From: Escherichia coli
GTDB lineage: Bacteria; Pseudomonadota; Gammaproteobacteria; Enterobacterales; Enterobacteriaceae
NCBI RefSeq assembly: GCF_044324875.1
Contig: NZ_CP172187.1
Length of the DNA: 64,000 bases
Reading direction: 5' to 3' (one strand)
The notes beneath the pieces were generated by a model. It did not search any database and had not been told where the DNA came from. It saw nothing but the letters and a program-made list of their open reading frames with translations. Below, piece after piece: positions 16,188-56,226 of this stretch (within the stretch, counting starts at the first letter, position 1; each line of letters starts with the position of its first letter). The translations under genes and the position numbers were made by a program.

Positions 16188-19100
16188 ATGGCAGTTCGTG
16201 GCATTAACAAGGTCATTCTTGTCGGTGTGCGCCGTTGAAGCGCGGTGTTTTATGGAGTGTTGCCTGAAAAGCAACATGGCTTAGTGGTATAGCCATTGCA
16301 TACTGTGGTTAGCCTTGCTTGGTAACAGGCTCGGAGATCCTGAAAAGGAGAGGTGAACATAGCATCCACAGAAAAGGGTGGTGAATATGGAAATCGTTAT
16401 AAGTATCACCATTCAATGCAAGATGTATATGGATAAACTGGGTTTGTTGAAGTCGAGATCTATGTGGGAAACAGGAAACCAATAACGCAGAACGATTGAA
16501 GCGTTATTCCCGTACTAGCACAAGAAATCCGTCCGACGTTGATTGTGACCACTCTAACGGGCCAGCTATTGATGAAATAGTTAAACGATCGAAAGACATC
16601 CTAAGTACATCGCATCTCCACACCGTGAAACTACGGGACTACCTAAACTGGATTTATACCCAGCATGGTAGCGGAGTCTCCATAGTACTCAAGGTCGGCC
16701 TGTAATGGGTTCCGGCAGTCCGCATTATACGGAAGCAGCAAAGGTATAAATCAACCGGAAGGAAGATGAAAGCCTCACAGTGCTGCGGGGAAGGGAGACA
16801 GTTGTTAGATACATCAATCTCTAAGAGGAGGGTTAGCCAATGCTGCCTGATGAACTTGAGAAAAGATTAGATGGAATTGAGGATGCTTCAAAAAAAGGGT
16901 ATCCAGTACGTAATCTATACAAAATTGCGTGTGAGCCCGGACTGTGGCTGCAAGCCTACGTGAATATACGGGCCAATGCAGGTGCACTGACTCAAGGTGT
17001 ATCAACAGATACCATTGATGGCTTTTCTATCGAAAGAGCAGAGAAGCTGGCAAAAACATTGCGGAGTAGAGAATACGTAGCGAAACCTGTACGCAGAGTT
17101 CAGATCCCAAAAAAGGACGGAAAAACCAGACCGCTGGGGATTCCAGGTGGAGACGATAAACTGGCGCAAGAAGTAGCAAGAATTATTCTGGAAAGGGTTT
17201 ATGAACCAGTATTCTCTGAACACTCTCATGGATTCAGACCAAAACGTTCGTGTGAAACTGCGCTCAGATCTATTCGTCCAGTCTGGAACGGAGTTAAATG
17301 GATCGTGGATGTTGATATCAAAGGTTTCTTTGACAATATCCCCCACAAACTATTGCTGAATACACTGGCAGAGAAAATTAAGGATAAGAATTTCCTGAAA
17401 TTAATCGAACAGTGGCTGAAGGCAGGATATGTGGACAATTGGAAATACCATCGCTCATATTCTGGCACGCCACAAGGTGGGATAATTTCTCCCTTACTGG
17501 CAAATATATACCTCGACAAACTGGACCGTTTTGTAGAACAGAATTTAATTCCTGCATATACAAGCGGTACAAAACGAAGAGCGAATCCAGATATGAACAG
17601 GCTGGCCCATAAGATTCATAAACTACGAAAGAAAGTAGACGGTATGGCAACTGATTCTGAATCAGAAAAAGAAGCCATAAAGAAAGAAATTGAACGACTG
17701 CTTGAAGAAAAACGTTCTATACCATCTCAGGTCATGAACGATCCAAACTTCAGGCGTATGTACTATGTTCGATATGCTGATGACTTCGTAATCGGTGTCA
17801 TCGGCTCGAAGAAAGATGCTGAACATATATCAAGACAGGTCAGAAACTTTATTACTACTTCACTGGGATTGGAAGTTAATGAAGCAAAGACCAGGATCCG
17901 CCATATCTCAGAAGGAGTTAATTTTTTAGGCTATGAAATCAGACAGGCAGATGCAAAGAAATTGCTGAAGCAGAAAATGCAAGGGCGGCACGCTCTCCGG
18001 AGATCCACCACAGGAATTGTGCAGCTCTTCGTTCCTGACAATATAGCCGCTAAATTTTGTCACCAAAAGAAATATGGCTGTTATGAGAATGTGAAGGCTG
18101 TACATCGTTCAAGTCTACAAAATCTCAGTGAAGCTGAAATTGTTCTGACTTTCAACGCGGAAATGCGCGGATTGGCGAACTACTACAGTCTGGCGCTGGA
18201 CATGAAATATAAATTATCAAAATTATATTTCATATGGCAAATAAGCCTTTTTAAGACCCTGGCGAATAAACGACGTAGTTCAGTGAATAAAGTCGCCAAA
18301 TCGCTACGGCAAAATAATGGAGATCTGGCTATTACCGTTCAGGCCAAAAATGGATCCCGAAAGATTGAGGTTTTCAAACTCAAACATGTCAATCGCAACC
18401 GAACAACGATTGTCGATACGGAACCGAGAACCGCACATATCACAACCCGCACAACAGAGATCATGCGTCGATTAGGGGCAAGGATCTGCGAGTATTGTGC
18501 GAAGACTGGGCGCTGCGAAGTACATCATGTCAGAAAGCTAAAAGACCTGAAGAAAGGTCGTAAGGCCGGATATAAACCCAGCTTGTGGCAACTAATGATG
18601 ATCGCACGCCGCCGGAAAACGATGATTTTGTGCGCAAGTTGCCACGACAAGTTACATAGCGGAAAACTACCCGATTTGAGACAGGAAAAGGGAAGAATAC
18701 TCCTGCAACCACCTGTCTCAAGCGGGGATTCTGCTAAATGAGTTTATCCCCAATAAGCTAGCAATGGAGAGCCGTATGCACTGAAAGGTGCACGTACGGT
18801 TCGGAGGGGGGGTAACGGTGATCTAACTCAAGATAAGCAGGACATATTCGCCATTTATCTTGAAAGACCACACGTACCCTACCCTACCGTCTGGGAAAAG
18901 ATCCGGAAGTCCGTTACATCCCAAACGGGGGCGCAGTGGCAAACCTGCAGGTGGCCACGTCAGAAAGCTGGCGCGACAAACAGACGGGGGAGATACGGGA
19001 GCAGACAGAATGGCATCGCGTGGTGCTGTTCGGCAAGCTCGCGGAAGTGGCTGGTGAGTATCTGCGCAAGGGCGCGCAGGTCTACATCGAAGGTCAGCTT

Positions 19101-40042: not shown

Positions 40043-40564
40043 ATGGGATTTTTCTCGTTTTTACGAAAGATAAGTAATAAAGAAAAAGGGGTGGTTATCT
40101 ATGAGAAGCAGTGGTTCTCACTGCTGGAAAAGGTGAGTGCTTTTGATGAGGTCAGACAATGGGCTGAAAGTAATGGTGGAGCATATTATCCTCTGCTGGA
40201 GTGTCGTCGGCTTACAGACAGTGAAGATGTCAGGAAATCAGAGGATATACTGAACCGACTGGAGTTTATTGACAGAAGATTTCGGGAATTCATCAGCATT
40301 ATGTCTGAACATATTAATAATGATAAAACTAAATCCATGTGGGAGAGGGAATTGTCTGAATATCCACCGGAAAAAATATACCAGGTCCGGAGAGAGGGAG
40401 AACATCTGTCATTAAAAAATTACGGTGATGATATTACTCTGAACAGAGATACCGCCGTGGCTACGGTGCAGATTACTGTCAGCAGAAAATGCATTACTCA
40501 GGAAGAAATGGATGAATTATATGCATTGTCTGAGAGACTGAAAGAAAAGTGCGCCGGTAATTAA
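40043..40564 (+). CDS. hypothetical protein (173 aa, non-core, AT-rich)
   Basis: ATG after AAAGGTG; no family recognised. Confidence 0.5.
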   Translation: MGFFSFLRKISNKEKGVVIYEKQWFSLLEKVSAFDEVRQWAESNGGAYYPLLECRRLTDSEDVRKSEDILNRLEFIDRRFREFISIMSEHINNDKTKSMWERELSEYPPEKIYQVRREGEHLSLKNYGDDITLNRDTAVATVQITVSRKCITQEEMDELYALSERLKEKCAGN

Positions 40565-41597: not shown

Positions 41598-41621
41598 ATC
41601 TGTTCCCGTAAGGAGGCATTG

Positions 41622-42044
41622 ATGGCGCTGACAAAGAAGCAGCGGGAAAAACTGCGTATGAAATTCGGCGGTCGTTGTGCGTACTGCGGCTGTGAACTGC
41701 CGGAAAAAGGCTGGCATGCCGACCATGTTCAGGCGGTGCTCCGCAAGTCAGAGCAGTGCATGAAGGCTGCAGAAAAGCGCATTTTCAGGCTGAAATCCAC
41801 CGGTGATGTTTTCAGACCGGAGGCCGACTGTCCGGAAAACCTCGTCCCGGCCTGTGCGCCGTGCAACCTGCTGAAAACAACATATTCGCTGGAGATGTTC
41901 AGAACGCAGGTGTCCCTGCAGGTTGAACGGGGGCGAAGAAGCAGCGTGAATTTCAGGACCGCAGAACGGTTCGGGCTGATTCAGGTGGTGAACAAACCAG
42001 TCGTGTTCTGGTTTGAGCAATATCAGAGGGAGAGTGAGGTATGA
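41622..42044 (+). CDS. HNH endonuclease-family protein, translationally coupled to traN
   Basis: CAYCGC...HADHV...CAPCN motifs; AGGAGG RBS; ATGA overlap with traN. Confidence 0.75.
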   Translation: MALTKKQREKLRMKFGGRCAYCGCELPEKGWHADHVQAVLRKSEQCMKAAEKRIFRLKSTGDVFRPEADCPENLVPACAPCNLLKTTYSLEMFRTQVSLQVERGRRSSVNFRTAERFGLIQVVNKPVVFWFEQYQRESEV

Positions 42045-43891
42045 AACGTCTTCTGCCATTGCTGCTGGGGCTGGCAGTCAGTGTGGCACAGGCTGACAGC
42101 AACAGTGATTACCGGGCGGGTTCTGATTTTGCCCGTCAGATTCAGGGGCAGGGTACAGGCAGTATTCAGGGCTTTAAGCCACAGGAGAGTATCCCCGGCT
42201 ATAACGCGAATCCGGACGAGACAAAATATTACGGTGGAGTGACTGCCGGCGGGGATGGCGGCCTGAAAAATGACGGCACCACGGAATGGGCGACCGGTGA
42301 AACCGGAAAAACTATCACAGAGTCATTCATGAACAAGCCGAAAGACATTCTTTCACCGGATGCGCCGTTTATCCAGACCGGCAGGGATGTGGTGAACCGG
42401 GCTGACAGCATTGTGGGAAACACCGGGCAGCAGTGCAGTGCGCAGGAGATAAACCGCAGTGAATTCACAAACTATACCTGTGAGCGGGACACGATGGTGG
42501 AGGAGTACTGCACACGGACTGCCAGTATCACCGGGGACTGGAAATACACGGATGAATATCGTGAGGTGACGATACCGCACTCACAGTTCCAGTTCAGTAT
42601 GAACGGGCTGAAACTGGTGTTCAGTGTCACGGCTCCGGTAACCGGTACAGTGGAAAGTGCATCATTGTCTGTATACGCCGCTTTTTTCTTCCTGAATTCT
42701 CGTTATACCTTCATGAATTCGACGTTCAATGTTGGCCTGGTAAACGGGCAGTCGGGTACTTTCCCCTTGTCCGGGGCGACAGGTTTGCAGGTGACACAGG
42801 GGCAGGTTCTGACCGGTAGTGGCTGTACTGCAAACGGTAATTGCCTCCCGCACGGGAACGGTGACAGGAAAGTCTATGAATCGCTTGTCAGTGGTGCTTC
42901 CACCTTTACGCTGAAACTCAGGATGAAGGTCCGTGATAAAGAATGGGTTCCCCGGGTGGAGTGGGTGGAGAGTTGTCCGTTTAATAAAGCGGATGGCGTG
43001 CTGAAAGGCACTGAGTGTTCAGAGCCGGGGGGTACGAAAACGGGTGTGATGGAAGGTAAACCCTGGAGCATCACACAGGCATGCTGGGCATACCGGGATA
43101 AATATGTCACACAGTCCGCAGATAACGGCACCTGTCAGAAATATGTCGATAATCCGGCCTGTACGCTGGCCTCACGTCAGTGCGCGTTTTATTCCGATGA
43201 GGGAATCTGTCTGCATGAGTATGCCACGTACTCCTGCGAGTCCAGAACATCAGGAAAAGTGATGGTCTGTGGTGGTGATGTCTTCTGCCTTGACGGTGAA
43301 TGCGATAAGGCACAGAGCGGAAAAAGCAGTGATTTTGGTGAGGCTGTATCACAGCTGGCTGCGCTTGCCGCCGCAGGTAAGGATGTTGCCGCCCTGAATG
43401 GTGTGGATGTCAGGGCTTTCACGGGCGAGGCGAAATTCTGCCGTAAGGCCGCAGCCGGCTTCAGTAACTGCTGTAAGGATGGTGGCTGGGGTCAGGATGT
43501 GGGGCTGGCGAAGTGCAACAGTGAAGAAAAGGCACTGGGAAAGGCAAAGGACAACAAACTGACGGTGAGTGTGGGCGAGTTCTGTTCGAAAAAGGTACTC
43601 GGTGTCTGCCTGCAGAAAAAGCGCAGCTACTGCCAGTTTGATTCGAAACTGGCGCAGATAGTCCAGCAGCAGGGGCGTAACGGGCAGCTGCGTATCGGGT
43701 TTGGCAGCGCCAAAAGTCCTGACTGCCGTGGAATAACCGTGGATGAACTACAGCGTATTAAGTTCGACCAGCTGGACTTCACTAACTTCTACGAAGACCT
43801 GATGAATAACCAGAAAATCCCGGACAGTGGCGTTCTGACGCAGAAAGTGAAAGAGCAGATTGCTGACCAGCTGAAGCAGGCAGGACAATAA
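42041..43891 (+). CDS. traN: TraN (Cys-rich outer-membrane mating-pair stabilisation protein)
   Basis: 616 aa; signal peptide; many conserved Cys. Confidence 0.9.
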   Translation: MKRLLPLLLGLAVSVAQADSNSDYRAGSDFARQIQGQGTGSIQGFKPQESIPGYNANPDETKYYGGVTAGGDGGLKNDGTTEWATGETGKTITESFMNKPKDILSPDAPFIQTGRDVVNRADSIVGNTGQQCSAQEINRSEFTNYTCERDTMVEEYCTRTASITGDWKYTDEYREVTIPHSQFQFSMNGLKLVFSVTAPVTGTVESASLSVYAAFFFLNSRYTFMNSTFNVGLVNGQSGTFPLSGATGLQVTQGQVLTGSGCTANGNCLPHGNGDRKVYESLVSGASTFTLKLRMKVRDKEWVPRVEWVESCPFNKADGVLKGTECSEPGGTKTGVMEGKPWSITQACWAYRDKYVTQSADNGTCQKYVDNPACTLASRQCAFYSDEGICLHEYATYSCESRTSGKVMVCGGDVFCLDGECDKAQSGKSSDFGEAVSQLAALAAAGKDVAALNGVDVRAFTGEAKFCRKAAAGFSNCCKDGGWGQDVGLAKCNSEEKALGKAKDNKLTVSVGEFCSKKVLGVCLQKKRSYCQFDSKLAQIVQQQGRNGQLRIGFGSAKSPDCRGITVDELQRIKFDQLDFTNFYEDLMNNQKIPDSGVLTQKVKEQIADQLKQAGQ

Positions 43892-43914
43892 GGTATGGAA
43901 AATAACCGGGGGAA

Positions 43915-44163
43915 ATGATGAAGGTCATATTCACGTCGAACCGTTTTATTGATTTTCTTATCCGGCTTTTGATTACAGCGATTGTCATTTCCCCGGTAAT
44001 TATCTGGTCGTGGGATACGGTAAAAGAAACCACGGCAGACGGGATGCCTGCCGCTGCTTTCGTTATCCTTTACTCCGGTGTGCTCCTGTTTATTCTGTAT
44101 TTTTGTTTTTCTGCCCTGACCTGCAGAAAACCGATGAAAGAAAAAATGATGAAAGGAATGAAG
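43915..44163 (+). CDS. trbE: TrbE-like small membrane protein; no stop codon before the in-frame traF start
   Basis: Frame continues uninterrupted into traF (ORF 43915-44907). Confidence 0.55.
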
Positions 44164-44907
44164 ATGAATAAAGCATTACTGCCACTGTTACTCTGCTGCT
44201 TTATTTTTCCGGCGTCAGGGAAAGATGCAGGCTGGCAGTGGTATAACGAGAAAATAAATCCGAAGGAAAAAGAAAATAAACCTGTACCTGCAGCCCCCCG
44301 TCAGGAGCCGGATATTATGCAGAAACTGGCCGCGCTGCAGACGGCAACAAAGCGGGCGCTGTACGAAGCCATTCTGTATCCCGGCGTGGATAATTTTGTG
44401 AAATATTTCCGGCTGCAGAATTACTGGACTCAGCAGGCCGGGCTTTTCACCATGAGTGCTAAAAAAGCTATGCTGGCACATCCCGAACTGGACTATAACC
44501 TGCAGTACAGCCATTACAACGGCACGGTCCGGAACCAGCTGGCGGCAGACCAGGCGCAGCAGCGACAGGCCATTGCGAAACTGGCTGAACACTACGGCAT
44601 CATGTTCTTTTACCGGGGGCAGGACCCCATCGACGGGCAGCTGGCGCAGGTCATTAATGGCTTCAGGGATACCTATGGTCTGAGTGTTATTCCCGTTTCC
44701 GTGGATGGTGTGATTAATCCGCTGTTGCCGGATTCCCGGACTGACCAGGGGCAGGCGCAGCGCCTCGGCGTGAAATATTTCCCGGCCATGATGCTGGTTG
44801 ACCCGAAACAGGGCAGTGTTCGCCCGTTATCATACGGCTTTATTTCGCAGGACGACCTGGCAAAACAATTCCTGAACGTTTCTGAAGATTTTAAACCCAA
44901 TTTTTAA
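44164..44907 (+). CDS. traF: TraF (thioredoxin-fold pilus assembly protein) with own signal peptide
   Basis: 247 aa from MNKALLPLLLCCFIFPASG. Confidence 0.85.
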   Translation: MNKALLPLLLCCFIFPASGKDAGWQWYNEKINPKEKENKPVPAAPRQEPDIMQKLAALQTATKRALYEAILYPGVDNFVKYFRLQNYWTQQAGLFTMSAKKAMLAHPELDYNLQYSHYNGTVRNQLAADQAQQRQAIAKLAEHYGIMFFYRGQDPIDGQLAQVINGFRDTYGLSVIPVSVDGVINPLLPDSRTDQGQAQRLGVKYFPAMMLVDPKQGSVRPLSYGFISQDDLAKQFLNVSEDFKPNF

Positions 44908-44922
44908 TCGCGGATTTGATTT

Positions 44923-45270
44923 ATGAGTGAAGATTATTTGAAACTGTTTACAGGTGTTGTTCTGTTAATATTTGTCATTATTGCCGGTTATTTCTTTTCT
45001 GAGCGTAATGACAGGAAAATGTTTCTCCTGGGCTCACTGGTTTTCCTTGTTATTAATATCGCGTGTTTATATGTGCTGACTGCCAGTCTCTGGTTTCTGT
45101 GTGGTGCAATTATGAATCAGGGCGCAGCAATGGTTGTTCCAATGGTTATTGGCTCATTACCGAACGTTACGAGCTTCGACGGGTTCAGAAGAATATTTAT
45201 CTGTATTATGTTGTCATCAGTATGGTCCGGAGTGATGTGGTTTTTTATAAGGGGGCTTATGACAGGCTAA
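44923..45270 (+). CDS. trbA: TrbA
   Basis: 115 aa hydrophobic; position. Confidence 0.7.
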   Translation: MSEDYLKLFTGVVLLIFVIIAGYFFSERNDRKMFLLGSLVFLVINIACLYVLTASLWFLCGAIMNQGAAMVVPMVIGSLPNVTSFDGFRRIFICIMLSSVWSGVMWFFIRGLMTG

Positions 45271-45666: not shown

Positions 45667-45951
45667 ATGATAAGTAAACGCAGATTCTCTTTACCCCGGC
45701 TTGATATTACGGGAATGTGGGTATTTTCCCTGGGTGTCTGGTTTCATATCGTCGCCCGTCTTGTTTACAGCAAACCCTGGATGGCTTTTTTTCTGGCGGA
45801 GCTGATTGCGGCCATCCTTGTGCTGTTCGGCGCATACCAGGTGCTGGATGCATGGATTGCCCGTGTCAGCCGGGAAGAGCGTGAGGCACTGGAAGCCAGG
45901 CAACAGGCCATGATGGCAGAGCAGCAGGAGGGCGGACATGTCTCTCACTAA
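45667..45951 (+). CDS. traQ: TraQ (pilin chaperone)
   Basis: 94 aa; position. Confidence 0.8.
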   Translation: MISKRRFSLPRLDITGMWVFSLGVWFHIVARLVYSKPWMAFFLAELIAAILVLFGAYQVLDAWIARVSREEREALEARQQAMMAEQQEGGHVSH

Positions 45952-46483
45952 ATTACTGCCGGTCATTTTGTTGATGATGGCCACAGGTGTGCAGGCCTCC
46001 ACCCGGGATGAAATTGAACGACTCTGGAATCCGCAGGGTATGGCCGCGCAGCCTGCACAACCGGCAGCAGGCACGTCAGCCAGGACAGAAAAGCCGGCCC
46101 CCCGCTGGTTCCGCCTCAGCAACGGCAGGCAGGTTAACCTGGCCGACTGGAAGGTGGTGCTGTTTATGCAGGGGCATTGCCCTTACTGTCACCAGTTTGA
46201 CCCGGTACTGAAACAGCTGGCACAGCAGTACGGCTTTTCCGTTTTTCCCTACACCCTGGATGGTCAGGGTGATACCGCCTTTCCAGAGGCATTGCCGGTG
46301 CCACCGGACGTGATGCAGACCTTCTTCCCGAATATCCCGGTGGCCACACCGACCACCTTCCTGGTCAACGTCAACACGCTGGAAGCATTACCGCTTTTAC
46401 AGGGGGCAACGGATGCCGCCGGTTTTATGGCGCGGATGGATACCGTTCTGCAGATGTACGGAGGAAAAAAGGGTGCGAAATAA
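45938..46483 (+). CDS. trbB: TrbB (thioredoxin-like, CPYC)
   Basis: 181 aa; CPYC motif. Confidence 0.85.
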   Translation: MSLTKLLPVILLMMATGVQASTRDEIERLWNPQGMAAQPAQPAAGTSARTEKPAPRWFRLSNGRQVNLADWKVVLFMQGHCPYCHQFDPVLKQLAQQYGFSVFPYTLDGQGDTAFPEALPVPPDVMQTFFPNIPVATPTTFLVNVNTLEALPLLQGATDAAGFMARMDTVLQMYGGKKGAK

Positions 46484-52794: not shown

Positions 52795-53509
52795 ATGACA
52801 TCAGACAATATCGCTGAATATGTTGGTGAGAATAATCAATTTACTGAGAAGCCTGTAACTGAATACCCCCCGGTGATACAGGATAATACAGTGACCACTA
52901 AAGACTATCTGTACAGCAATAATATTGATACTGACCTTTTAGTGGTTATCGGAGGGCTTATTGTTATATTGTTTCTCATGATGCTTATCATGTACTTTAT
53001 TAATTCTCTCAGGCATAAGGAATTAACTGAAATACTGACAAAAATATCTTTTCCTGAAAAATCCGGGAGCAATTCGCTTAAACCGGAAGCGGTCAGCTGT
53101 AATTTGTTGTCCCTGTGTGTGCTGGCACCGGTATTCTGTACACCCAAAAAGCTGGCTGAAGTTTCCAGGGAGATCATCGTGGCGAGTGCGCAGGAGATTG
53201 CATGGACGCCGGGGAGCAGTCGTATTGATGGTCATCAGGGCGAAAATATTACCTGGTCTCTGTCGTCACAGTCTCATGCCGATAAATACGAGCTCATCAA
53301 TAAAACGTCCCGTGTTTCTCCTGACAGTGGCCGTTTTTATGAACCGGACACAGTTCTGGATCACCGTGAACGGGTACGCCTTTTTATTCAGATCCAGTTT
53401 CCGCATGGGAGTGACTGGTCTGAAGTATTGCGCCTGACTGACATTGTTGCAGAGAAGGTCTCTTCCGGCAGGACTGCAGGTGCGTATTCCGCTCTATTCG
53501 ATCACGGAT
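52795..53509 (+). pseudogene. unknown membrane-anchored protein gene truncated at its 3' end by IS insertion
   Basis: ORF 52729-53583 reads through into IS terminal sequence; one TM segment; AT-rich start. Confidence 0.5.
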
Positions 53510-53579
53510 TGGCATCGAAGTCCGATCAGCGATTCGCATCCATTCGATCAACCGGGAACTTAACTTTTTCTACCGCTTT

Positions 53580-54335
53580 TTAACGCGTTTTTTCGCTGCT
53601 TTCCACTACCGGGGGATTTTTCCTCAGTGACTCTCCCTGAAGGACCACTCGGTGTGAGTTATGTACCAGTCTGTCCAGGATGGCATCTGCTGTTGTTGGG
53701 TTCTCCATCAGACCATGCCATTTATCTACCGGGAACTGGCTTACCACTATCGTGCTGCTTTGTCCGTAACGATCCTCTATGAGCTCCAGAAGGTCATTAC
53801 ACTGGGCGTTACTTAACTGTTCCAGCCCCAGATCGTCCAGGATTAGAACCTGTATTTTTTGCAACTGTTTCAGATATTTCAGCCAGCTGCCATCAACACG
53901 TCCCTGAGCCAGTTGTTCCAGTAATCGCCCGGTTCTACAGTACCGGACGCTGTGTTTCTGTCGACATGCCTGTTCGCCCAGCGCATTGGCTATCCAGCTC
54001 TTGCCACATCCTGTCGGACCGGTTATCAGCAGGTTTTTCCTGTGGGTTATGTAGTGGCCGTTCAGCAGTTCTCTCATCTGTTCAGCCCGCAGACCTCTTG
54101 AGGCCGGATAGCGCAGCCCTTCCGGTGTTGCCTGGTATTTCAGGCCGGCATTTTTTCTCAACCGTGCCACACGGCTGTTTTCCCTGCTCAGAAGCTCGTC
54201 ATCAACCAGCAGCGTCAGCCTTTCCTCGAACGACAGTTCGTCGTAGGTCTGAGGCGTTTCCCGCTGCCGTATCAGGCTCCCGGCCATCGCCGGGAGTTTC
54301 AGTTGGGTCAGTTTGTTTAACAGGTTATCACTCAT
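53580..54335 (-). CDS. istB: IstB helper ATPase
   Basis: 251 aa from MSDNLLNKLTQLKLPAMAG; Walker A GPTGCGKS. Confidence 0.9.
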   Translation of the reverse strand: MSDNLLNKLTQLKLPAMAGSLIRQRETPQTYDELSFEERLTLLVDDELLSRENSRVARLRKNAGLKYQATPEGLRYPASRGLRAEQMRELLNGHYITHRKNLLITGPTGCGKSWIANALGEQACRQKHSVRYCRTGRLLEQLAQGRVDGSWLKYLKQLQKIQVLILDDLGLEQLSNAQCNDLLELIEDRYGQSSTIVVSQFPVDKWHGLMENPTTADAILDRLVHNSHRVVLQGESLRKNPPVVESSEKTR

Positions 54336-54351
54336 ACTGTTGTTCCTTCTG

Positions 54352-55887
54352 TCAGTGGTAGTAGCCCGGACCACGCAGGTTTTCATGCTCTGAAGCATAT
54401 GCCGGATGTTGTTCGCCCTGGCGGGATAATGGAAGCTCCAGGTTCTCCCGATGGTGACGCAGCAGATTGTCGATAAAGCGTCTGTCAGGGGCGTTATAGT
54501 GCAGGGCAACGTAACAGGCCTTTTCCAGCCGTTCCGGGCCGTATTTTTTCTGAAGTGCCAGCAGCCCCAGAACTGCACGATAAGCCAGTTCCGGATGGGG
54601 TTTTGCCTTCAGCATGGATTCAACCACCCGGCCTGTGGACGGGCCCGTACGTTTTCCCTGCTCGATCAGGCGTTCCGGTGTCCATGTCCCGTGCTGCCGG
54701 TGGCGCTCTGGCATGTGAAGCGGATTGGTTGTGTGTTTATATTCATGTGTGCTGCGCGGATGTTGCGCCACACACTGCCCCTTGTGCCAGAGCTGTACCA
54801 CCGACTGCCCCGCCTTCAGTGACAGACGCTGACCGACCAGTTCGTGTGGAACGGAGTACCAGTGACGGGCATATTCAACGTGGTAGTCAGGGCCAACCTT
54901 CACAGCTTTGTATTCCGTGTATTCATAAGGTGCCAGAGGCAGCGGAGAGAGTGCTGGCGCATCCAGTATGCGGAAGCGTTCTGCACGGGTTTGATTGCCG
55001 TACCCCTTCATTGGCCGGTTATTCATGTCTGTCAGTAACTCCCTAAGGCGCGCATTCAGCGCCCTGAGCGTGTGGAAGGTTTCATTACGGATGCGGGCAA
55101 GAAGCCATCGTTCAACGATGAGGACGCCGTTTTCTGCTTTTGGTTTATCTTTAGGTTTGCGTGGTCGGGCCGGGATGATAACCGTGCCATAGTGCTCAGC
55201 CAGTGCCTGATAACTGTCGTTGATGACAGGCTCATATCGATCGGCCTTTTTCACTGCGCTTCTGAGGTTATCGGGGATGAGCAGCTTCGGTACGCCGCCC
55301 AGGAAGGTCAGGCAACGGCTGTGGGCATTTAACCATGACATCATGTCCTGACCTTCGCACGCTTCAACGTAGGTATAGTTGGACGCCCCCATTACGGCCA
55401 CGAAGATTGCCACGCGGCGTATCTCACCGGTGTCCGGATTAATAACAGGAACCGTAGGACCACAGAAGTCGATAAAAAGCTTTTCGCCGGCACGATGCTC
55501 CTGGCGCATGGAGAGACGTCGCGTTTTTTTCCACTCCCGGTAGCAACGGCAGAAGTGCGAGTATCCCATCGCTTTGTTACCCGCCTGTGCCTTGTATTCC
55601 ATCCACAACAGTTGCCGCGTCACACCTGGTTTTCTCATTTCCGTATCGAAGTACAACATGTCAGGCATTACAAGCTCTGATGCAAAGGTGTCTTTGGGCG
55701 GAAAAATGAGTTTCTCCAGCGTGTCATGGGATATATCAGCAGGTAATGGCCATGACAGAGAAGAGGCTTTGAAGCGGGCAAGAACCTCAAAAACGGTTGA
55801 GGCGCTGATGTGTAACGTCAGTCCGATACAACGGTTAGTCAGCTTCTTGTCGAACTTGAGCTGAAGGATCTTAAAACAGGTTTCCAT
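54352..55887 (-). CDS. istA: IstA transposase (DDE)
   Basis: 511 aa from METCFKILQLKF...; AGGAG RBS. Confidence 0.85.
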   Translation of the reverse strand: METCFKILQLKFDKKLTNRCIGLTLHISASTVFEVLARFKASSLSWPLPADISHDTLEKLIFPPKDTFASELVMPDMLYFDTEMRKPGVTRQLLWMEYKAQAGNKAMGYSHFCRCYREWKKTRRLSMRQEHRAGEKLFIDFCGPTVPVINPDTGEIRRVAIFVAVMGASNYTYVEACEGQDMMSWLNAHSRCLTFLGGVPKLLIPDNLRSAVKKADRYEPVINDSYQALAEHYGTVIIPARPRKPKDKPKAENGVLIVERWLLARIRNETFHTLRALNARLRELLTDMNNRPMKGYGNQTRAERFRILDAPALSPLPLAPYEYTEYKAVKVGPDYHVEYARHWYSVPHELVGQRLSLKAGQSVVQLWHKGQCVAQHPRSTHEYKHTTNPLHMPERHRQHGTWTPERLIEQGKRTGPSTGRVVESMLKAKPHPELAYRAVLGLLALQKKYGPERLEKACYVALHYNAPDRRFIDNLLRHHRENLELPLSRQGEQHPAYASEHENLRGPGYYH

Positions 55888-56226
55888 AGTGCTCCTGGAT
55901 TTTCTCTTTCTGGACATTGACGTCTCCACTGGTTTAAACACGGCAATGGAGACTGTGGTGAAAAGAGTTAATTCCCGGAGTGACTGGCAGGATGCCAATC
56001 AATGATCGGAAGCATGCCAAATCGTGATCGATTGTGATGCCAAACTGTGATCGGAGATGGATGCCAAATCATGATCGATTCGAATGCCAAACTGCGATCG
56101 ATTCAGATGCCATTTTGCAGCAGGCGGGTATCACCACCGGCATACAGGGTACACCTGGTCTGTTTCTGTGAATTAACCCCACATCATCCTTTTCTGCCCT
56201 GTTCCAGATTTTCCCGGAGTTTCATC

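Follow-up and report, generated by a model that had tools for sequence, protein, structure and literature searches.

The closest known counterparts of the trbE-traF region described here are those of F (NC_002483) and R100 (NC_002134), in which the genes follow the order traN-trbE-traF-trbA. The reference trbE comprises 85 codons; its terminal TAA falls within an 8-nt overlap with the start of traF (ATGAATAA), and traF lies in the +1 frame. In record coordinates, trbE and traF occupy 80848-81105 and 81098-81841 in F, and 66863-67120 and 67113-67856 in R100; in pJJ1887-4 they lie at 1569-1826 and 1819-2562 (locus coordinates). Two further plasmids, pMyJU781 and CP027554, also have a separate trbE stop and the same +1 offset to traF. 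In the references, the start codons of the two genes are 250 nt apart, and a TGA within the first unit of a CTGA tandem repeat closes the frame of traF shortly before the gene begins. In this ancestral layout, ribosomes translating trbE would terminate at the overlapping TAA. The annotated traF ATG is presumably the true start, an assumption that we take from the literature. Insertion mutants of F in trbE are reportedly transfer-proficient, and the gene is said to be dispensable for F transfer.

The window analyzed here (the whole stretch of 64,000 nt from an Escherichia coli contig, NZ_CP172187.1) is a segment of a classical F-like plasmid, and its traJ-to-traI operon is otherwise complete. 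The initial annotation held that trbE and traF share one stop-free frame, and this is borne out: a single open reading frame containing both domains runs from 43915 to 44907. It encodes 330 aa if read from the first ATG of an ATGATG, and 329 aa from the second (at 43918), which is the start used in reference annotations. The TraF start had been placed at 44164, where there is indeed an ATG, now 246 nt from the trbE start and in frame with it. The features of the region are as follows.

43915..44907, plus strand: continuous open reading frame (TrbE residues 1-68, 14 frameshifted residues, full-length TraF)
43918..44119, plus strand: trbE in its native frame, codons 1-68, with both predicted transmembrane helices and two lineage-private SNPs
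44116..44123, plus strand: deletion scar CTGA^CCTG (CTGACTGACCTG in intact relatives), the deletion lying between 44119 and 44120
44120..44163, plus strand: original 3' end of trbE, read here in the frame of traF as residues 69-82 (CRKPMKEKMMKGMK)
44152..44158, plus strand: Shine-Dalgarno-like AAAGGAA of traF, with its AGGA core at 44154-44157, 6 nt before the ATG
44164..44907, plus strand: traF, 247 codons, including a 19-residue signal peptide (MNKALLPLLLCCFIFPASG)
44164..44171, plus strand: ATGAATAA, the native overlap of traF start and trbE stop, with its TAA (44169-44171) out of the trbE frame

The window was aligned with F, R100, pJJ1887-4, pMyJU781, and CP027554, and all five alignments agree on one 4-nt gap, in the window sequence at CTGA^CCTG, as the only difference of consequence. 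The window reads CCCTGA^CCTGC, versus CCCTGACTGACCTGC in F, pMyJU781, and CP027554 and CCCTGACTGGCCTGC in R100 and pJJ1887-4. It therefore lacks one 4-nt unit of the CTGACTGA CTGA tandem repeat (the lost unit is not assignable within the repeat), and loss of one tandem-repeat unit is a classic product of replication slippage. Without this unit, trbE after codon 68 falls into the traF frame and the frame-closing TGA is out of register, so that CTG ACC TGC is read across the deletion site and no stop occurs in the 14 codons up to the traF ATG. The frame is not open by chance, as it owes its existence to a defined 4-nt deletion that sets the window apart from all reference plasmids. The initial annotation did not include this cause, a frameshift deletion of 4 bp through which trbE counts as a pseudogene by RefSeq criteria, and had left room for the shared frame being simply the native layout. 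That suggestion is refuted, as trbE in F, R100, and pJJ1887-4 has its own TAA and lies in another frame, and comparison of the F and R100 trbE-traF junctions found no in-frame arrangement in these references.

The rarity of the deletion is evident from a megablast of positions 43850-44950 against PLSDB, which matched 3,676 plasmid records, nearly all of them with 1,105 record bases aligned to 1,101 query bases. The 121-nt junction of the window occurs exactly in six of the 3,437 PLSDB records that cover it, and likewise in six of 2,817 covering records from complete E. coli genomes. All other listed records show the 4-nt gap against the window, such that ~99.8% of the ~3,440 matching records are native at this site and the allele makes up ~0.2% of complete F-like records (PLSDB, complete E. 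coli genomes).

On the 330-aa open reading frame, Pfam identifies TrbE (PF11100; 48.8 bits, cutoff 25) at residues 12-67 and TraF (PF13728; 233 bits) at residues 106-320, and in NCBIfam the models match residues 1-75 (TrbE, NF010271) and 85-328 (the TraF equivalog, TIGR02739) of the fused product. The TraF part belongs to its family by both score and position. It reaches 335.8 bits with TIGR02739 (cutoff 204.6) over profile positions 2-255 of 256 and 478.8 bits with NF010257 (cutoff 294), and it lies between trbE and trbA (44923-45270), downstream of traN (42041-43891), with traQ (45667-45951) and trbB (45938-46483) farther along. The TrbE part, at 127.3 bits, exceeds the NF010271 cutoff of 94 over profile positions 1-75 of 84, compared with 160.3 bits over positions 1-84 for TrbE of an intact relative. 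However, there is no free-standing TrbE of ~85 aa with two transmembrane helices, an acidic tail and its own stop, because the 4-nt frameshift removed the tail and the stop. The native tail (DLQKTDERKNDERNEDE) is acidic, with a net charge of about -4.2, whereas the shifted linker CRKPMKEKMMKGMK carries about +4.7.

A homologue search for a family of such fusions, which listed cluster representatives only, found no two-domain TrbE plus TraF protein (PF11100 and PF13728) among the 120 listed representatives of 132 significant hits; the best query coverage among those listed was 56%. On the sequences compared, a natural TrbE-TraF fusion family is not supported, and the sole fusion found is this single allele. 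The 329-aa fusion is itself filed in a 90%-identity cluster in which the representative and most listed members are the 616-aa TraN. This looks like a clustering artefact, and one that hides the fusion from representative-based searches. The idea that trbE and traF are normally one frame, with TraF initiated internally, draws its sole support from the open frame in the window. It is contradicted by the separate trbE stop and +1 offset in all five plasmids aligned, by the extra 4 nt in the great majority of matching records, and by the lack of any other protein with both domains among the representatives listed, and we give it practically no credence.

The allele is already on record, under two inconsistent annotations. 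In each of the six complete carriers, RefSeq (PGAP) treats trbE as a pseudogene ("conjugal transfer protein TrbE, frameshifted") and reports traF as a protein of 247 aa (WP_001030371.1, or WP_001030376.1 in pGZM7d), whereas GenBank and other gene callers give the 329-aa fused product as "TraF" (e.g., AYW28424.1). The carriers, with sizes from 63 to 148 kb, are listed here.

pTB-nb3 (NZ_CP033634): chicken, China
pGZM7d: chicken, China
pLH50-c-D: poultry, Switzerland
pGF4-A: chicken meat, Switzerland
FDAARGOS_1287 unnamed3: human, USA
pMTY1886_IncFII (pMTY1886): Japan

Over 1,101 nt, pTB-nb3 is 100% identical to the window, and among the five other carriers compared, three match the open reading frame of the window at every nucleotide. 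All six carry the same deletion together with two linked SNPs, 43923 A>G (synonymous) and 44048 T>C (Leu44Pro), both of them private to the deletion lineage. The 228 nt on the 5' side of the deletion are 100% identical in the six carriers only, with all other records at least 2 nt off. In CP027554, the nearest intact plasmid, trbE differs only at 43923 (G/A), at 44048 (C/T), and by the CTGA unit. These sequences show a single origin for the allele, in one mutational event later passed on by inheritance; recurrent slippage with several origins was considered and rejected, given the two private SNPs common to all carriers.

The flanks of the carriers have diverged by as much as 2% and vary in their trbA/artA variants and IS insertions, and the traF part occurs in at least four nucleotide haplotypes. 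At 14 of 15 carrier loci compared, all traF nucleotide differences from the window are synonymous. Most of this synonymous variation probably came by recombination, and it thus holds little information on selection since the deletion. It should also be noted that Leu44Pro, a non-conservative and private change, lies at the start of the second hydrophobic helix of TrbE. It is compatible with relaxed constraint on trbE, although a single substitution is no evidence for this.

Small indels are frequent in long-read assemblies, and a 4-nt gap might accordingly be taken for an error in one sequence. In this case, however, the gap occurs together with the two private SNPs in six complete plasmids, each sequenced independently, from four countries, and likewise in ten additional draft contigs inspected. 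It corresponds to a 4-nt repeat unit rather than to a homopolymer error. In addition, the exact fused protein (329 aa) is present on 346 contigs (453 index blocks) of a large public protein collection, under NCBI accessions named "TraF" and in a UniRef entry with n=75. A sequencing artefact is for these reasons exceedingly improbable, and an allele that has persisted through the divergence and recombination described above cannot be an assembly error.

The DNA-level part of our reading, that this is a frameshift deletion and not the native layout, is near certain. We propose that replication slippage removed one copy of the CTGA-CTGA repeat at codon 69/70 of the 85-codon trbE, and that the resulting -1 shift would carry trbE ribosomes into the traF frame, with loss of the acidic 17-residue C-terminal tail and the stop, so that trbE runs on into traF. 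Programmed frameshifting was set aside as not needed, since the genes were separate ancestrally and it is a fixed change in the DNA that joined them. TraF could then be made by either of two routes: (i) independent initiation at the unchanged ribosome-binding site, or (ii) read-through from trbE to give a 37-kDa (37.3-kDa) TrbE'-TraF precursor.

The AAAGGAA Shine-Dalgarno sequence of traF and its AGGA core are unchanged from F and R100, and TraF itself is 100% identical to that of R100 (WP_001030371.1). The trbE gene has likewise kept its start and its G-rich ribosome-binding site, and with the frame open a TrbE-TraF fusion product, which the initial annotation had raised, would indeed be possible. 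The same annotation stated that TraF keeps its own signal peptide, and it does: MNKALLPLLLCCFIFPASG, followed by KD, is identical to the peptide in F and R100, and is now internal, at residues 83-101 of the long open reading frame. The junction RNA has no significant structure relative to shuffled controls (z = -1.27 for the deleted version and +0.62 for the F version), and an RNA structure that ties traF initiation to trbE translation was dropped as a candidate, as neither allele folds better than shuffled sequence.

Four more in-frame ATGs precede the traF ATG, at 44134, 44146, 44149, and 44158 (region 44134-44166). In intact plasmids they also lie downstream of the frame-closing TGA, and consequently some gene callers give an N-terminally extended TraF, for example, the entries of 254-280 aa.

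The expected fate of the read-through product follows from its hydropathy and charge layout. The N-terminus carries +2, the first transmembrane segment spans residues ~10-32, the loop is net -2, and the second transmembrane segment spans ~45-68; by charge count, the linker after it has six basic residues and one acidic. Under the positive-inside rule, these segments would insert as an N-in hairpin, with the strongly basic linker in the cytoplasm. The TraF signal peptide would then form a third, N-in/C-out segment, and its cleavage site, between ASG and KD, would be open to signal peptidase I in the periplasm. Cleavage would release normal 25.9-kDa periplasmic TraF and leave an 11.4-kDa remnant with three helices. 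We therefore predict that any read-through fusion inserts with the signal peptide of TraF in the right orientation and is cleaved to normal mature TraF. Based on sequence, TraF is most likely still made normally, and overall only TrbE would be lost or modified (its native C-terminal tail). Taken as a whole, the statement that this is a slippage frameshift allele, not the native layout, with benign, processed TraF has in our judgment a probability of roughly 0.8. For its functional part, "benign, processed," we regard the evidence as making it likely.

Several considerations bear on that functional part. Elongating trbE ribosomes could reduce independent initiation at the traF ATG. Also, cleavage of an internal signal peptide behind two transmembrane helices is not guaranteed, and if it fails, TraF would stay tethered to the inner membrane. 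The frameshift might accordingly be a deleterious polar mutation, in which TraF is mislocalised or its start occluded, pilus assembly is lowered, transfer is impaired, and the plasmids spread mainly by vertical inheritance or with the aid of a helper. In favor of this, traF is essential for F-pilus assembly and belongs to the essential traHUWNCF cluster (Fernandez-Lopez et al. 2016, PMC5102898). The carrier pGZM7d has been recovered only together with a conjugative helper: it appeared in transconjugants at 2.3e-4, under co-selection with pGZM7e, a second F-like conjugative plasmid (PMC11067769) that may have provided TrbE or TraF in trans. However, selection with sulfadiazine plus ceftiofur forced the co-transfer (PMC11067769), so the result is uninformative about a defect, and by the same token only consistent with transfer proficiency of pGZM7d, not proof of it. 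The Shine-Dalgarno sequence and ATG of traF are untouched and unstructured, and the allele is found across numerous backbones and countries, in tra operons that are otherwise intact, a wide distribution that argues for continued horizontal spread and against a strong TraF defect. We consider a deleterious polar effect unlikely.

The same wide distribution, over continents, hosts, and mosaic backbones, could be read in the opposite sense, as a sign that the fusion is adaptive, with selection for a functional membrane-anchored TraF or for a TraF dose changed because direct read-through takes the place of termination-reinitiation coupling explaining its spread. The conserved TrbE core (Pfam residues 12-67) is kept, and the strongly basic shifted linker is topologically favorable. 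Yet the allele is still rare, hitch-hiking on successful plasmids explains the spread equally well, and no independent recurrence was found among the 120 listed of 132 significant cluster representatives. Leu44Pro is consistent with relaxed constraint, without proving it. On balance, an adaptive origin for the spread seems very doubtful. Similarly, there is only a slim chance that TrbE'-TraF is abundant, differs in function from wild-type TraF (for example, as a pilus-assembly factor tethered to the inner membrane, or through a TraF stoichiometry that alters piliation or transfer), and has been under positive selection in an IncF lineage associated with poultry and humans. We thus retain the reading of a slippage frameshift with TraF made and processed normally.

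Other parts of the window contain further features. Downstream, between traT and traD, there is an IS21-family element near the 3' end of a conserved hypothetical open reading frame, ~100 nt upstream of traD.

53481-56119: IS21-family element, 2,639 bp, TG...CA ends, istA/istB on the minus strand
53580-54578, minus strand: IstB-like ATPase of the IS21-family element
54352-55998, minus strand: rve/Mu-transposase-C transposase of the IS21-family element

The element, which the closest relative (CP070073) lacks, is flanked by an intact 5-bp target duplication (GCAGG at 53476-53480 and 56120-56124). It could exert a polar effect on expression of traD and traI from the upstream tra promoter, and the insertion may matter more for plasmid transmissibility than the trbE frameshift. 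In the leading/maintenance region, positions 16840-18741 hold an ltrA-like open reading frame of 633 aa, in which reverse transcriptase, HNH, and group II intron maturase domains are combined; it marks a group II intron that many F-like plasmids share.

Upstream of traN, this lineage has extra open reading frames at 41619-42044 (141 aa) and 40043-40564 (a 173-aa hypothetical). The former is called an HNH endonuclease by RefSeq in the carriers and is without a Pfam match in the window. Neither is at this position in the PLSDB gene table of R100, a table known to be incomplete. The block orf-HNH-traN (616 aa) is common to all fusion-allele contigs, and the 329-aa fusion always occurs in the context trbC-orf-orf140-traN(616 aa)-fusion, where orf140 is the RefSeq HNH endonuclease.

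The feature is an ordinary, rare, already-annotated frameshift allele of an accessory gene. Its biological weight is small, as a lineage-marking frameshift in an accessory transfer gene that leaves its essential neighbor traF untouched. The CTGA deletion and the two linked SNPs nevertheless make a clean marker of one F-type transfer sub-lineage in E. coli from chickens and humans. The region is also an annotation trap (329-aa "TraF" from gene callers versus 247-aa TraF plus a trbE pseudogene from PGAP), and surveys of tra gene presence and absence will score trbE inconsistently as a result of these conflicting annotations. Should normal processing of the fusion be shown, the locus would provide a minor instance in nature of a signal peptide that works from an internal position, behind a transmembrane hairpin.

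How, then, does the locus compare with known systems? Relative to F and R100, the gene order is the same, the DNA is ~97-98% identical, and the traF Shine-Dalgarno sequence and the ATGAATAA motif are shared; TraF is identical to that of R100 and differs at two residues from that of F. The CTGA repeat, in contrast (CTGACTGA in F and CTGACTGG in R100), is 4 nt shorter in the window, and trbE is without its own stop. The six carriers annotated as "TrbE, frameshifted" share this allele, but none matches the whole window end to end (no single PLSDB record is identical to it), and the window differs from them in its extra IS21-family insertion upstream of traD. More generally, the ancestral trbE/traF junction, with its 8-nt overlap, belongs to the same type as the translationally coupled genes of bacterial operons with ATGA or ATGNNTAA stop-start overlaps. 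To our knowledge, translational coupling at this junction has no experimental demonstration. Unlike in overlaps of that type, the stop of the upstream gene trbE is no longer read in the window, so that any trbE-traF coupling would be replaced by read-through.
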